Positions 8,106-58,221 of a stretch of DNA of 64,000 nucleotides are shown piece by piece. A program made the translations under genes and the position numbers. The notes under the pieces were generated by a model. The model saw only the letters and a list, made by a program, of their open reading frames with translations, did not search any database and had not been told where the DNA came from. This stretch comes from Nitrospirota bacterium (GTDB taxonomy: Bacteria; Nitrospirota; Thermodesulfovibrionia; Thermodesulfovibrionales; SM23-35), in NCBI GenBank assembly GCA_040753955.1, contig JBFMDQ010000003.1:17312-81311 (forward strand), read 5' to 3'. The number at the start of each line of letters is the position of its first letter. Position 1 is the first letter of the stretch.

Positions 8106-8372
8106 TTATATGCGGATTTTATATTCTTTTATTTTTGTCCTCAGAGTATTTCTATTTATACCGAGGGTCTTCGCAGTCTTGAGCTGGTTACCTTCAGTCT
8201 CCTTAAGGACTATTGTAATGAGTGATCTTTCGACCTCTGAAAGAACAGCCTTATAAAGATTGGATTTTTCAAGTTTTGTCAGCTCTTTTAGGTAGCGCTT
8301 CAATTTCTCTTCAAGAAACTCATTTATCGAGCATGAGTTTGCCGCTTCGATGAGAAGTTCTCTCTTATCCAT
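8106..8372 (-). CDS. fis: Fis-family helix-turn-helix DNA-binding protein
   Basis: I start it at MDKRELL, preceded by AAAGGAGG. The C-terminal HTH reads GNQLKTAKTLGINRNTLRTKIKEY. The longer tracked ORF runs through a tRNA gene. Confidence 0.8.
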   Translation of the reverse strand: MDKRELLIEAANSCSINEFLEEKLKRYLKELTKLEKSNLYKAVLSEVERSLITIVLKETEGNQLKTAKTLGINRNTLRTKIKEYKIRI

Positions 8373-8619
8373 TAACCGGCCTCCTTTAGTAGGTCTTCCC
8401 TTTCTTGTGCAACTTCTGCTCATGACATCATCATAAATAAAAATATAACCCGTTAATCTGATAAATTTGCAAGCATTAAAAGAAGAATTATTGGGAATAT
8501 GAACATCCCAAATTGCAAGATAATTATCCCATAGAATTATCAGGAATTCAACAAGATAGTGGAGAGTAGTTACTTTTTGGCGGAGGGGCAGGGATTCGTC
8601 CCGCACCAAAAGCTTTTTT

Positions 8620-8707
8620 TGGCGGAAGGAGCAGGATTCGAACCTGCGAGGCCTTTCGACCTGGACGCTTTCGAGGCGTCTGGATTCAACCACTCTCCCA
8701 TCCTTCC
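8620..8707 (-). tRNA. tRNA-Ser (anticodon CGA), CCA encoded
   Basis: The 88-nt cloverleaf was folded by hand. It has acceptor GGAAGGA/TCCTTCC, anticodon arm GACGC-CTCGAAA-GCGTC, a long variable arm and T arm GCAGG-TTCGAAT-CCTGC. Confidence 0.9.
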
Positions 8708-8749
8708 AGTTTTGGTGCGGGATTCGAGACCGCCTCATTCTTTAAAACC

Positions 8750-38965: not shown

Positions 38966-39190
38966 CTCCAATGATCAATAACCAAATACCAATAACCAAA
39001 TAAATTCCAATAATCAAAAACCAATAACCAAACAACATTAACCCTTAATTAGCAACTGAACCACTTGCACGGATTAACTGTGAAATGAGTTCTCTGTGGT
39101 TCTCTCTTCAAGGTCGAATTTTTGTTTGGTTATTGGAATTTTCTTCATTGGTTATTATTTGGATCTTGGAATTTGGTGTTTGGTTATTAT
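38966..39190. repeat. Long inverted repeat of ~70-nt heptamer-periodic arms (ATAACCA/AATACCA words) filling the hypE-pdxJ spacer
   Basis: The arm at 38966-39036 faces the inverted arm at 39121-39190, with an 84-nt centre. A third copy of the arm lies at 46935-47000. Confidence 0.75.
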
Positions 39191-45852: not shown

Positions 45853-46944
45853 ATGGGTGACGAACTTTATATAAAGCGTGCCCTTAGGCTTGCAGCAAAG
45901 GCACGCTGTATGACAAGCCCGAACCCCATGGTTGGGGCTATAATTGTCAAGAATGGGAGAACAATTTCTGAGGATTTTCATAGAAGGCCTGGGACTCCCC
46001 ATGCTGAGGCTCTCGCTATAGAAAAGGCCGGAGAAAATGCCAGGGGTTCCACCCTTTATATAAATCTCGAGCCATGCTGCCATACAGAGAAAAGAACCCC
46101 TCCCTGCACAGAGGCTATCATTAGTGCGGGTATAAAAGAAGTGGTTATTGCTATGACAGACCCAAATCCAAAGGTCTCGGGCAGAGGAATCTCAGAGCTT
46201 CAGAAGGCTGGTATAAAAGTCAGATCAGGTATTCTCGAGAACAAAGCAGAGAGACTTAATGAGGCATATATAAAGTACATGACTACAGGAAAACCCTTTG
46301 TGATACTAAAGATTGCCATGACCCTCGATGGGAAGATTGCTACCCCTGAAGGGCAGTCTAAATGGATAACATCCGAAAAGGCAAGAAAGATGGTTCACCG
46401 TCTGAGAGGCAGCGTTGACGCAATCATAACAGCTATAGGAACAGTTAAAGCAGATGACCCTGAGCTTACGGTAAGGATAAAAGATGGTAAGAATCCCCGA
46501 AGGATCGTTATTGACCCTGACCTTGAAATATCTTTGAATGCAAAGGTTCTTAAGGTACCACCCCCGACAATTATAATAGCGAAAAAGTCAGCAGTCGAAG
46601 AAAAGAAAAAAACATTGTTCAATAAGGGTGTTCAAATCATCGAGTATAAGGGAGAAAAACTAAATCTCCACTGGCTCATGAGAAGGCTTGGGGGAAGAGA
46701 AATCACATCGGTTCTGATAGAGGCAGGCTCCTCGATGAATGCCCATGCCCTCGAAGAAGGAATTGTCGACAAGGTGATATTTTTCATTGCACCGAAGATC
46801 ATCGGAGGGAGAGAGTCATTCCCTGCTGTAGGTGGGAAGTCCTTCAGGAGGCTTGAAGAGGCATACCGTTTAAAGGATGTGAAGGTAAGAAGGGTAGGGG
46901 AAGATATCTTGATTGAAGGATATATAGATAAGAATAACCAATAA
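45853..46944 (+). CDS. ribD: Bifunctional riboflavin biosynthesis protein RibD (deaminase/reductase)
   Basis: The 363-aa ORF has the CDA motifs HAE and PCxH..(x)..PC, plus a C-terminal RibD reductase domain. The last codons and the stop lie in repeat DNA. Confidence 0.95.
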   Translation: MGDELYIKRALRLAAKARCMTSPNPMVGAIIVKNGRTISEDFHRRPGTPHAEALAIEKAGENARGSTLYINLEPCCHTEKRTPPCTEAIISAGIKEVVIAMTDPNPKVSGRGISELQKAGIKVRSGILENKAERLNEAYIKYMTTGKPFVILKIAMTLDGKIATPEGQSKWITSEKARKMVHRLRGSVDAIITAIGTVKADDPELTVRIKDGKNPRRIVIDPDLEISLNAKVLKVPPPTIIIAKKSAVEEKKKTLFNKGVQIIEYKGEKLNLHWLMRRLGGREITSVLIEAGSSMNAHALEEGIVDKVIFFIAPKIIGGRESFPAVGGKSFRRLEEAYRLKDVKVRRVGEDILIEGYIDKNNQ

Positions 46945-47030
46945 CCAAGCACCAAATTCCAAATAAATTACAATGACCAAATTCCAATAACCAAACAAAA
47001 AATCTCTGTAGCCGCAGGCTTCAATCTGCG
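46935..47030. repeat. Composite repeat: one ATAACCA-type arm followed by the 24-nt motif TGTAGCCGCAGGCTTCAATCTGCG
   Basis: The arm resembles 38966-39036. The 24-mer at 47007-47030 matches 42699-42722 inside hypF at 22 of 24 positions. Confidence 0.7.
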
Positions 47031-54478: not shown

Positions 54479-54518
54479 TTTTTCAAAAATAACAGAAAAG
54501 CCCAGGACTGTCAATGAA

Positions 54519-54851
54519 CTAAATAGAGCTCTGTTTCAGAAGCTCCTGAGCCTGCGCCAGATTCAACCTGTCGCCGATTTTATCAAAGATCGTCTCAGCG
54601 CGTTTCAGAAAGAGGGGATCTCCTGTCCGTTTGCCCATTTCCAGATATGTCATACCCAGGTCACAACAGGCCCCCAGCTTTTCTGCTGCTAACAGGCTTC
54701 GTTGCCACCACTTTTTGGCAGCAGCAGGCCTGCCATTGGCCCACTCATAGGTGCCTCGCACACGAAAGGCATGCGGTAACCCACCGCGACAGATCTTGGC
54801 TTCTTTCAGGGCTGTCTGGCATGCCAGCTTTGTTTTTTTAGCATCTCGGTC
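54519..54851 (-). pseudogene. Out-of-frame C-terminal continuation of the cyclase-STAND-TPR gene
   Basis: The -1 frame is open from just downstream of a TGA at about 54851 through to 54519. It reads ...KLACQTALKEAKICRGGLPHAFRVRGTYEWANGRP...LGM.., a typical terminal TPR segment. The frames meet at an A7 run (54833-54839). Confidence 0.7.
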
Positions 54852-57800
54852 CTTTCAAGTCCTTCCGACCTCTCTGCTGAGGCGAGATAGACCTCGGCTA
54901 AAACATTGCGAAGTCTGGTGATAGGCGGACCCTTTAATCCCTGCTCTGCAGCGAGTTGTTCGCTCTTCTCCAGCGCGCCACGGGCTTGTTTCAGCCTTCC
55001 TTGATGTAAATAGCACAGTCCGATGTCACGGCTCGCATCTACCATCCCCTGGTAATCTGGAACGGTCATATGCAATTCAATTGCCTTCTGCAGGTGTGCT
55101 TCAGCCTCTTTCAATGCTCCGGTACACAACAGGTTGAGCCCTTGTCCCCACAATCTCCATCCCCAGATCTGGTGATCAGCCCCTTCCTGACCTACCTGAG
55201 CGATATTCTGGAATGTCTCAAAACTCTGAGTAAGGTTTCCTCTGAAATGGTATAATTCGGCACGTATTGAGTTTGCCGCTCCCCATCCACGCAAATTGCC
55301 TGCTGTCCAGAACGCCTCTGCTGCCTTCTGACAATCTTCAATAGCTGCCTCCCACTTACCCAGAATGTCTTCATGTATTGCCTGACCGAGATAGGAGAGA
55401 CCTACTGCTACAGGGTTCTTGATCTGCTCTGCCAGTGTCACTGCACGCCGATGGTATCTCTCAGCGAGCCAGAATATATGTATGTGGTCGAAAATCAACC
55501 CTACACCCATATATCCCTGAACAATACCCAGTGAAAAGCCACTCCGTTCCGAGAAGTTCAGTAACGTGAGTGCATCAAGTAAAAGTCGTTCCCGGTCAAT
55601 AAAATAGTTGATCCAGCCTGTCACCTCATAGATGCGTGACCGTTCTTCTACTATAGGGCCATTTCGGTCAAGTCTGTGACGAAGAGACAAGCCTGGCAGC
55701 AAAAGGTGGCCTAACTGCCTTAAAAGTTGTTTGGCGATAGCCATGCGAATACCCCAGCGTGAGGTGGGATATGGGCTTCCTATGTAGGTTAATGCTCGCT
55801 GCATGTACTCCGCGGCTTGATGGTGTTCTCCCCGTCTGAAAAAGGCCTCACCCATTTTGCGCTCGAGTATTGCCCGCTGAAATGGATCCCACTGGTCACC
55901 GAACGCGCGTGCATGGGCAGCTATTGCTTGCTGGTAATGAGAAAGGGCTTCAGCGTCTGCAGCTACCTTAACTGCACGGTCACCAATCTTAAACAGATAG
56001 TCCTGGGCCTTCTCCCAATCCTCTGCCTGTGCGAAGTGATAAGCCAGAAGACCGTAGAACTCTTCCAGGCGTCCTGCAAACAATGTCTCGAGGCATTCTC
56101 CCACCCGATGGTGCAGTTCCCGTCGTCGTTGCAAAAGAATGCTTTCATAGGTAACTTCCTGGGTCAGCGCATGCTTAAAGGTATACTCAAGTTCTGGAAA
56201 GAGGCTCTTTTCATGGATGAGTTCTAATTGTTGTAATTTCTCCAGGTGCTTATCTAATCCTTGTTCTTCTTTGCAGACGGCCCGCAGTACTCGATAGAAA
56301 AAGCTACGCCCGATGACCGAGGCAATCTTGAGCACCTCCTTAGTTTCTTCATCAAGGCGATCAATACGAGCTATGATTACCCCTCGGAGGGTATGAGGTA
56401 TGGTAATATGTTCAATCGATTTAGTGACTTGCCAGCGACCCGTCGACACATTCTGTATAACGGCTCCGACATCGATAAGTGAGCGGACCACCTCTTCTAC
56501 AAAGAAAGGATTTCCTTCGGCTTTTTGCAGGATTAACTTGGCTAATCGTGAAGTTGTATCTTTAATCTCTAACAGGTTATACAGAAGTCGGGTGCTATCG
56601 ACTGGTGAAAGGGAAGTAATGACAATCTCAGTGTAGCGGTCAGGATAGTCCCTTGCAGCTATCTCCCACAGGTGCGCTGCAGGGCTCTGAGGGTCTGGTC
56701 GGCTGATGCCACAGATCATAAGTGGGACTTCTCTGACAAGAGGGAAGGGGTGCTCCAATAGCTCCATTGAAGACTGGTCGACCCATTGCAGATCCTCAAA
56801 GACAAGAATCAACGGATACTTTAGGGAGAGTCGCTCGAAAAAGCGTCGTGTTGCTCGAAAGATATGTCTGCCCATTGCCTCCCCATCCAGGTACTTGACG
56901 CGTTCTTCTAATCCACCCCTCACTTCCAAACCCAATAAACTTGCGAGATAGGGGAGAATCTCTGCCACCTGGTCGGGAAACAAGGCTGTGACTTCCTTTT
57001 CAAGTTTTTCCCAGGCCTCTATTTCGTCATCTTCCTCAGTGATTCCTGCATAAGCCTTGAGGATCTGCTGGAAAGGCCAATAGCTGATTGTCTTGCTATA
57101 AGAAAGGGCCCTGCCTTCCAGCCAGAGCAGTTTCCATCCTTCCACTTGTTTTCTCACTTCTGCCACGAGTCGTGACTTGCCAAGGCCTGCATCTCCAACA
57201 ACTGACACGATGCTTCCCTGGCCTGCCAATAGACGTCCGATGTTCCCAATGAAAGTGGCAAATTCAATATTACGCCCTACCATTGGTGAGACTATACCCC
57301 GGACTGAACTTCCATACAAGGAATATGGCAGCTCCAGAACACCCAGTACCCTGTACGCTGGAACAGGCTTTGACTTTCCCTTTACCCGAATCGGCCCAAG
57401 TTCTTGAAAATCAAAGATACCCCTGGTCAAACGATAGGTAGTAGGTCCCACCAGGATCTGCCCGGGTTTTGCAAGATCTTTCAGCCTGGAGGCTACATTA
57501 ACGGTATCACCCATTACCGAGTAATCTTGCCGCTCGCTCGTGCCAAGGCCTCCCACAATGACCAGGCCTGTGTTGACGCCGAGGTGAAGGCTTAAACTCG
57601 TAGCATGCGCTGCATTAAAGGCCGCCATTGATTCTATCATCTCTAAGCCAGCTCGCAAGGCCCTTTCATGGTCATTCTCATGAGATAGGGGCACGCCAAA
57701 GACTGCCATAATCGCATCGCCAATGTACTTGTCGAGCATACCCCCATATTTTGTCACAACCGGTACTAACTGCTCGAAACAGGCATTTATTAAATCCCGT

Positions 57801-58012
57801 ATCTGTTCAGGGTCCATTTCCTCAGATAGTGAGGTGAATCTGGTAATGTCGGCAAATATCACGGTTACGAACTTTCGTTCCCCTTGAAAGTTCTTGATAA
57901 TTTCTCGGTCAAAAGGAGGCTGACCCTCTTGATAGGTGCTTAATTTAGACCCACACTCTAAGCAGAATTTTGCAAAAGACGTATTCTCATGTTGGCACTT
58001 AGGGCATTTCAT
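54806..58012 (-). CDS. Zinc-ribbon / class III adenylate-guanylate cyclase / P-loop STAND ATPase / TPR protein, interrupted near the 3' end
   Basis: The 1068-aa ORF has an N-terminal CPKC..CLEC ribbon, cyclase motifs (FADITRFT, KYIGDAIMAVFG, GDTVNVASR), Walker A GDAGLGKS and long TPR-like repeats. The reading frame continues after a -1 shift. Confidence 0.85.
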   Translation of the reverse strand: MKCPKCQHENTSFAKFCLECGSKLSTYQEGQPPFDREIIKNFQGERKFVTVIFADITRFTSLSEEMDPEQIRDLINACFEQLVPVVTKYGGMLDKYIGDAIMAVFGVPLSHENDHERALRAGLEMIESMAAFNAAHATSLSLHLGVNTGLVIVGGLGTSERQDYSVMGDTVNVASRLKDLAKPGQILVGPTTYRLTRGIFDFQELGPIRVKGKSKPVPAYRVLGVLELPYSLYGSSVRGIVSPMVGRNIEFATFIGNIGRLLAGQGSIVSVVGDAGLGKSRLVAEVRKQVEGWKLLWLEGRALSYSKTISYWPFQQILKAYAGITEEDDEIEAWEKLEKEVTALFPDQVAEILPYLASLLGLEVRGGLEERVKYLDGEAMGRHIFRATRRFFERLSLKYPLILVFEDLQWVDQSSMELLEHPFPLVREVPLMICGISRPDPQSPAAHLWEIAARDYPDRYTEIVITSLSPVDSTRLLYNLLEIKDTTSRLAKLILQKAEGNPFFVEEVVRSLIDVGAVIQNVSTGRWQVTKSIEHITIPHTLRGVIIARIDRLDEETKEVLKIASVIGRSFFYRVLRAVCKEEQGLDKHLEKLQQLELIHEKSLFPELEYTFKHALTQEVTYESILLQRRRELHHRVGECLETLFAGRLEEFYGLLAYHFAQAEDWEKAQDYLFKIGDRAVKVAADAEALSHYQQAIAAHARAFGDQWDPFQRAILERKMGEAFFRRGEHHQAAEYMQRALTYIGSPYPTSRWGIRMAIAKQLLRQLGHLLLPGLSLRHRLDRNGPIVEERSRIYEVTGWINYFIDRERLLLDALTLLNFSERSGFSLGIVQGYMGVGLIFDHIHIFWLAERYHRRAVTLAEQIKNPVAVGLSYLGQAIHEDILGKWEAAIEDCQKAAEAFWTAGNLRGWGAANSIRAELYHFRGNLTQSFETFQNIAQVGQEGADHQIWGWRLWGQGLNLLCTGALKEAEAHLQKAIELHMTVPDYQGMVDASRDIGLCYLHQGRLKQARGALEKSEQLAAEQGLKGPPITRLRNVLAEVYLASAERSEGLERTEMLKKQSWHARQP

Positions 58013-58221
58013 AATCTTCTACCTCACGTCTTCACTACATTCCATATTCCATAATACTATAAGCATCACTCAGAGAATTGAATGTGTCAAGAGAATTCTC
58101 TCCCTCTTGCCTCACATATAAATCTATACGAAATGATTACTGGTTGCCTCATGAAAATTATATACGAAATCTTCTTTATCTTCATGGATATCTTTCTCTT
58201 TAGCCAAGGCAATTCGGAGGG

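Follow-up and report, generated by a model that had tools for sequence, protein, structure and literature searches.

A probable recent frameshift allele beside an A7 run in a class III cyclase-STAND-TPR gene of a Nitrospirota bacterium without detected MutS or MutL

A stretch of 64,000 nt from the Nitrospirota bacterium assembly GCA_040753955.1 (contig JBFMDQ010000003.1; hereafter the window) carries a gene for a class III cyclase-STAND-TPR protein whose reading frame is broken at a run of seven adenines. We found that a single base present in the closest orthologue is absent at the edge of this run, and we conclude with moderate confidence that the window holds a real, recent and strain-specific frameshift allele, most likely a simple inactivation of the gene. 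The original prediction, made from the sequence alone, had located the split at the A7 run and offered three explanations: a homopolymer sequencing or assembly error, a phase-variable or decaying gene, or programmed −1 frameshifting giving two isoforms. The position of the split was confirmed and the second explanation is the best supported of the three, given intact homologues, two agreeing assemblies and mismatch-repair genes MutS and MutL that were not found. The genome containing the window is referred to below as G000 and a sister genome of the same genus as G001. The elements of the locus are as follows.

54806 to 58012, minus strand: truncated 0-frame open reading frame (ORF) of 1068 aa, with ATG at 58012 and TGA at 54808-54806.
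54806 to 54808, minus strand: premature TGA, met in the shifted frame; homologues run ~100 aa beyond it.
54833 to 54839, minus strand: A7 run (T7 on the plus strand), which the upstream frame of the broken allele reads as A AAA AAA.
54839 to 54840, minus strand: site of the 1-nt deletion, where the orthologue reads ...GCT G AAAAAAA C... and the window ...GCT AAAAAAA C...
54519 to 54854, minus strand: stretch open in the −1 frame, bounded by TGA at 54857-54855 and the natural stop TAG at 54521-54519.
54816 to 54827, minus strand: 12-nt palindrome CTGGCATGCCAG, inside codons for K-L-A-C-Q and not a conserved element.
54486 to 54514, minus strand: promoter-like site of the next gene, TTGACA-17-TATTTT, a consensus match only, directly after the −1-frame stop.

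The identity of the gene was assessed with Pfam on the 1068-aa ORF, which contains a zinc ribbon (residues 2-24), a class III adenylate/guanylate cyclase domain (Guanylate_cyc, 48-215, 6.8e-34), a STAND NTPase domain (AAA_16, 244-427, 1.1e-20) and TPR matches (4.3e-15) in a TPR-like solenoid. The nearest PDB match was the CyaB cyclase domain (3r5g). The order Guanylate_cyc, AAA_16, TPR identifies the product as a class III cyclase-STAND-TPR protein, and 'class 3 adenylate cyclase/TPR repeat protein' is the name that a Joint Genome Institute (JGI) source gives to one homologue, an adenylate cyclase (AC)-AAA_16-TPR architecture. The N-terminus of the ORF, MKCPKCQHEN, agrees with the homologues, while its final eight residues (QSWHARQP) are junk translated out of frame. 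The deposited NCBI protein on the window's own 82,332-nt contig (P0018) is 1018 aa long and starts at an internal GTG, Val51 of the 1068-aa ORF (window 57862-58012); this start is probably wrong, to judge from the homologues, all of which start at the zinc ribbon MKCPxCQ, 50 codons further upstream. A literature search on the AC-STAND family returned nothing useful, and no mention of the run or assembly accessions was found in the literature searched.

In the 0 frame the coding strand reads GAG ATG CTA AAA AAA CAA AGC TGG CAT GCC AGA CAG CCC TGA, exactly as had been claimed. We searched for homologues with the 1164-aa read-through protein as query, scored over residues 860-1164, and matched full-length homologues (1148-1213 aa, 37-78% identity) covering 95-100% of this region. 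All 15 homologues checked for an uninterrupted frame (37-96% identity) pass through the junction in a single frame and continue ~100 aa past the 0-frame stop, and none was seen to end at that stop. Twelve align without gaps across the junction (window EGLERTEMLKKTKLACQTALKEAK compared to, for example, EGLERIEMLKKTRYACQKAIKEAK), with many invariant columns among the aligned homologues in the ~100 residues beyond it.

The lesion itself was resolved by the closest relatives. Clustering at 90% identity placed the window protein in a cluster of three members, namely the 1068-aa Logan form, the 1018-aa NCBI call and the closest orthologue (P0019; 1164 aa; 96% amino acid and 97% (97.2%) nucleotide identity), which comes from an NCBI metagenome-assembled genome (MAG) named 'Thermodesulfovibrionales bacterium'. 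The gene for P0019 lies on JASEEX010000055.1 and was recovered independently in a Logan contig of SRR23186780, and the protein shows no difference from the read-through protein across the junction. Its DNA reads GAG ATG CTG AAA AAA ACA AAG CTG GCA, compared to GAG ATG CT- AAA AAA ACA AAG CTG GCA in the window. The absent base is the G of a leucine codon, with A7 in both alleles, and apart from this 1-nt deletion the 3.5-kb gene has no indel relative to the orthologue. An intact state of A8 had been expected; an intact allele does exist, but in the closest orthologue it is G+A7 instead. Across five homologue DNAs the codon at this position was CTG, CTG, CTC, ATC and CTG (CTG in 3/5), and the run following it was A7, A7, A6, A6 or interrupted. 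One base would thus have been lost at the 5' edge of the A7 run, either the G of CTG directly or by an equivalent route in which CTG may have changed to CTA, a synonymous substitution that makes A8, before A8 contracted to A7.

Beyond the junction the gene is well preserved. Translation of the −1 frame begins KDRDAKKTKLACQTALKEAK / KDRDAKKTKLACQTALKEAKICRGG and ends ...LLKQSSI, and its 104 codons past the A run specify the last 5.5 helices of the TPR solenoid, a conserved C-terminal segment. Of the two product sizes originally given, 1068 aa was correct, while the longer product, put at ~1160 aa, is 1164 aa by read-through. Over the downstream 107 codons, the window and P0019 differ by one synonymous and two non-synonymous substitutions, with no stops or indels. 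A downstream frame that carries no further lesions and just three substitutions indicates that the event was recent, such that the gene, if a pseudogene, would appear to be a very young one. Its frame is broken relative to intact orthologues and 104 conserved residues are lost, as expected of a pseudogene. The promoter-like site of the next gene, on the basis of its consensus match, probably shows where the cyclase gene naturally ends. Separate translation of the C-terminal piece, as in a split gene, was considered and rejected: the sole start is a GTG at 54761 that has no Shine-Dalgarno sequence and lies inside a TPR helix. Just upstream of the start of the next gene, an intergenic homopolymer at window 54483-54488 is T6 compared to T5 in the orthologue (plus strand).

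We next assessed whether the allele could be a sequencing or assembly artefact, in which case the true gene would be intact (G+A7 or A8) and one base would have been dropped beside the homopolymer. Homopolymers are the classic place for indel errors, the MAG is fragmented into 80 contigs, and the other frame breaks detected in G000 also lie at homopolymers. However, two different assemblers agree exactly over 4.6 kb: across 4637 nt, with the deletion among them, Logan contig SRR29635779_42856 shows 100% identity to the window, although it was possibly built from the MAG's own reads. Compared to the orthologue, the missing base is a G and the run length is unchanged, which is atypical for a run-length miscall. 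When 44 kb of the window was aligned to G001, the deletion was the sole isolated indel of a length not divisible by three in a long conserved ORF, with no other homopolymer indel in conserved coding regions; the remaining indels of this kind clustered in intergenic or strongly divergent stretches. Across the assembly, ~5 of ~730 runs of at least seven coincide with frame breaks, far under the levels of error-prone long reads, and ten 100-N gaps point to a scaffolded assembly; few run-linked frame breaks together with scaffold gaps are unlike error-prone long reads. With a single isolated frameshift in a conserved gene over 44 kb and an identical second assembly, an artefact is improbable. Further copies of the junction were sought by exact-pattern scans, which gave no match in JGI metagenome contigs and only the intact orthologue contig in GTDB genome contigs, and a search for further assemblies of the strain through the neighbouring 274-aa gene returned the same Logan contig only.

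To describe what the truncation removes, residues 801-1164 of the orthologue were modeled with AlphaFold2 using 15 sequences, which produced an 18-helix alpha-solenoid (predicted local distance difference test (pLDDT) 93.1, predicted template modelling score 0.88). Foldseek matched the model to TPR superhelices, including LGN/Pins, Rap proteins and MalT domain III (1hz4, TM 0.56), whereas Pfam alone on the last 104 aa gave sub-threshold TPR matches only. The claim that the −1 frame encodes a terminal TPR segment is therefore supported by both the model (pLDDT 93) and its fold matches. Residue 1060 (model residue 260) falls within the helix spanning 251-272, and in the model the mutant product would end mid-helix with eight wrong residues and five further helices missing (5.5 lost).

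In its order of cyclase, P-loop NOD (GDAGLGKSRL) and TPR sensor, and in a C-terminal fold that matches MalT domain III, the protein resembles MalT-type STAND proteins that carry a class III cyclase effector at their N-terminus; it differs in its N-terminal zinc ribbon, in having no LuxR-type helix-turn-helix and in the truncation of the window allele. By analogy with MalT-type STAND proteins, the lost segment may be the sensor or autoinhibitory arm. The mutant allele would yield a 1068-aa product that is missing the final 5.5 helices of its sensor solenoid and is most likely inactive or misregulated. Four points weigh against the allele as we interpret it. The population may be a mixed one, the window and Logan assemblies may share the same reads, loss of function is something that we infer, and an upstream-versus-downstream comparison of dN/dS has just three downstream differences to draw on, too few to show relaxed selection.

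The position of the break is informative with respect to its origin. The 0 and −1 frames overlap across 46 nt only, and the chance of an A or T run of at least seven falling inside this overlap is ~2% (613 such runs in 1.69 Mb). The coincidence of frame break and A run is not chance; it is the expected product of indel mutagenesis at homopolymers. We assessed mismatch repair in this context by domain searches. Among related genomes of the same family and order, the MutS_V domain (PF00488) is present in 38 of 41 and the MutL DNA_mis_repair domain (PF01119) in 22 of 25, and G000 and G001, which are 97.8% and 100% complete, gave no match to either. A search for NucS as an alternative repair protein gave only a partial match, to positions 15-55 of 124; the 128-aa frame that contains it is not a NucS. 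The genus appears to be without canonical mismatch repair, which suggests a genus-level loss in a genome-reduced lineage (1.7-1.9 Mb versus 2-3.7 Mb).

Apparent absence of mismatch repair predicts frequent real homopolymer indels. Other frame breaks in G000 were sought with a genome-wide heuristic for ORF pairs that can be joined by an edit of plus or minus one base at a homopolymer. It returned 148 candidates, mostly ordinary gene junctions, which were narrowed by eye and with Pfam to two confirmed and two probable extra frameshifts.

G000:C16:5750-5756: confirmed split at A7/T7 of a Polysacc_synt_2 (PseB/CapD-like) gene, with Pfam profile positions 1-182 and 180-292 on the two sides.
G000:C39:2814-2820: confirmed split at C7/G7 of a ThDP enzyme, TPP_N+M versus TPP_C.
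G000:C18:22618-22624: probable split at G7 of a WD40-Big_7-caspase protein.
G000:C18:2479-2486: probable split at C8 of a DUF4384 lipoprotein gene.

None of these four loci had a DNA match in G001. A lineage that has apparently lost MutS and MutL would be expected to acquire homopolymer indels frequently, and the cyclase gene may be one of several genes struck.

The same observations bear on a reversible, phase-variable (contingency) locus, in which CTA and A8 in total would be the ON state, slipped-strand events would toggle between A8 and A7, and the assembly would have captured the OFF state. A8 would restore the exact protein of the orthologue, as CTA and CTG both encode leucine, and the A7 run lies in coding sequence where its length sets the frame. 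Neither MutS nor MutL was detected in the genus, the downstream frame has stayed intact, and the other breaks fall at G7/C7, C8 and A7 runs in gene classes typical of contingency loci (surface polysaccharide, WD40-caspase and lipoprotein). However, the two alleles seen are both A7 and differ by the flanking G: the sole intact relative is G+A7, and tract length is equal in both. Phase variation would also require two events rather than one, A-tracts of seven or eight are only modestly mutable, and a single broken strain is equally explained by one-way decay. Phase variation at this gene is plausible but unlikely.

Homopolymer contingency loci and pseudogenes are known in bacteria lacking MutS and MutL, as in the poly-G/C tracts of Campylobacter jejuni and Helicobacter pylori. 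The cyclase gene is like those loci in having a homopolymer frame break within the coding region of a genome in which mismatch-repair genes were not found, with several breaks per genome in surface and signalling or defence-type genes. It is unlike them in its short A-tract (7) and the single tract length seen, and its host is a free-living uncultured member of the Thermodesulfovibrionales rather than a host-adapted pathogen. We consider it doubtful that A8 and A7 form a working switch, one of several contingency loci in free-living, genome-reduced subsurface Nitrospirota without MutS and MutL; if they did, stochastic phase variation of signalling or defence genes, such as cyclase-STAND and WD40-caspase genes, and of surface-polysaccharide genes would extend beyond the host-associated pathogens where it is known.

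A further explanation is an evolved, programmed −1 ribosomal frameshift, or transcriptional slippage, at A AAA AAA that sets a fixed ratio of 1068- and 1164-aa products. The locus has an X XXY YYZ heptamer, CT[A AAA AAA]C, in the 0 frame at 54833-54839 inside the 46-nt overlap, with AGGA 10 nt upstream and, as had been pointed out, a small 12-nt palindrome beginning 5 nt after the run, and AAA-AAA sites can frameshift efficiently in Escherichia coli (PMC1851650). Yet no shift is needed in the orthologue, at 97% identity, or in 14 other homologues, and heptamer, palindrome and AGGA are all present in the intact orthologue too. When the base that precedes an in-frame AAA AAA A is lost, the upstream frame necessarily reads the run as A AAA AAA, such that the heptamer called canonical in the original prediction is present, but as a by-product of the lesion rather than a design feature. 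Downstream structure is at the level of chance, as the 106 nt from the site fold at −27.6 kcal/mol compared to −28.9 ± 3.4 kcal/mol for shuffles (z = +0.38), and the palindrome, a 4-bp hairpin and the sole structure candidate, is absent from the DNA of more distant homologues (L055-L058). A_AAA_AAA is also far less shifty than A_AAA_AAG in E. coli (PMC5009743). Programmed frameshifting with two isoforms is largely contradicted by the orthologue comparison, and we regard it as very improbable.

The site can be compared with the −1 shift of E. coli dnaX, which uses A AAA AAG, an upstream Shine-Dalgarno-like element and a downstream hairpin (PMC5009743, PMC6771820). The two sites share a Lys-Lys slippery heptamer in the 0 frame, with AGGA 10 nt upstream in the cyclase gene. 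Here, however, A takes the place of G as the Z base, which makes slippage far less frequent in E. coli (PMC5009743); no downstream structure is significant, and orthologues do not share the split. What the shift would produce is the ancestral protein at full length and not an alternative isoform. A further parallel is 'compensatory' frameshifting on indels, a recognised incidental class (PMC5009743) that includes rescue of 1-nt deletions at a G run in herpesvirus TK (cited in PMC5009743) and at C-AAA-AAA in the E. coli overexpression vector pDEST17, where −1 frameshifting reaches 25-60% (PMC1851650). As in these cases, slippage on the run itself can partly reverse the effect of a single-base indel at a homopolymer, although the level here may be negligible. 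A few ribosomes, or RNA polymerase, may slip on A AAA AAA and restore some full-length protein, which would be incidental leakiness rather than an evolved signal for recoding. As a separate observation on the decoding of this run, ARAGORN predicted 45 tRNAs in G000, among which tRNA-Lys was CTT only; the AAA-decoding tRNA-Lys(UUU) is missing from the assembly.

Other features of the window concern repeats and a second gene. The ends of many G001 contigs (C5, C11, C13, C22, C33, C65, C87, C117, C137 and others) match an element of ~55 nt that lies at window 58097-58157, a short way upstream of the cyclase gene. The element is a dispersed, assembly-breaking repeat in G001 and has one other partial copy only in G000 (C12). 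Dispersed short repeats rich in AACCAA/CCAAT occur at window 46930-47000 and 38970-39035; the contigs of G000 contain at least 12 partial copies of them, and G001 has many. The ORF at window 8106-8741 (minus strand) has seven indels of lengths not divisible by three relative to G001 within ~240 nt (8374-8614), two of them at T runs, and looks like a decayed or highly divergent gene.

For annotation, positions 54519-58012 are best described as a single frameshifted gene (a pseudogene or an OFF allele) rather than as a 1018- or 1068-aa protein followed by an orphan ORF, and the site should stay off lists of recoding sites. As a frameshift the finding is ordinary in kind, and the apparent loss of MutS and MutL together with several frame breaks is the more interesting by-product. 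The apparently missing mismatch-repair genes and the several homopolymer breaks suggest a natural mutator lineage among the Thermodesulfovibrionales, which bears on genome reduction in this group and on how homopolymer 'pseudogenes' in MAGs are read.

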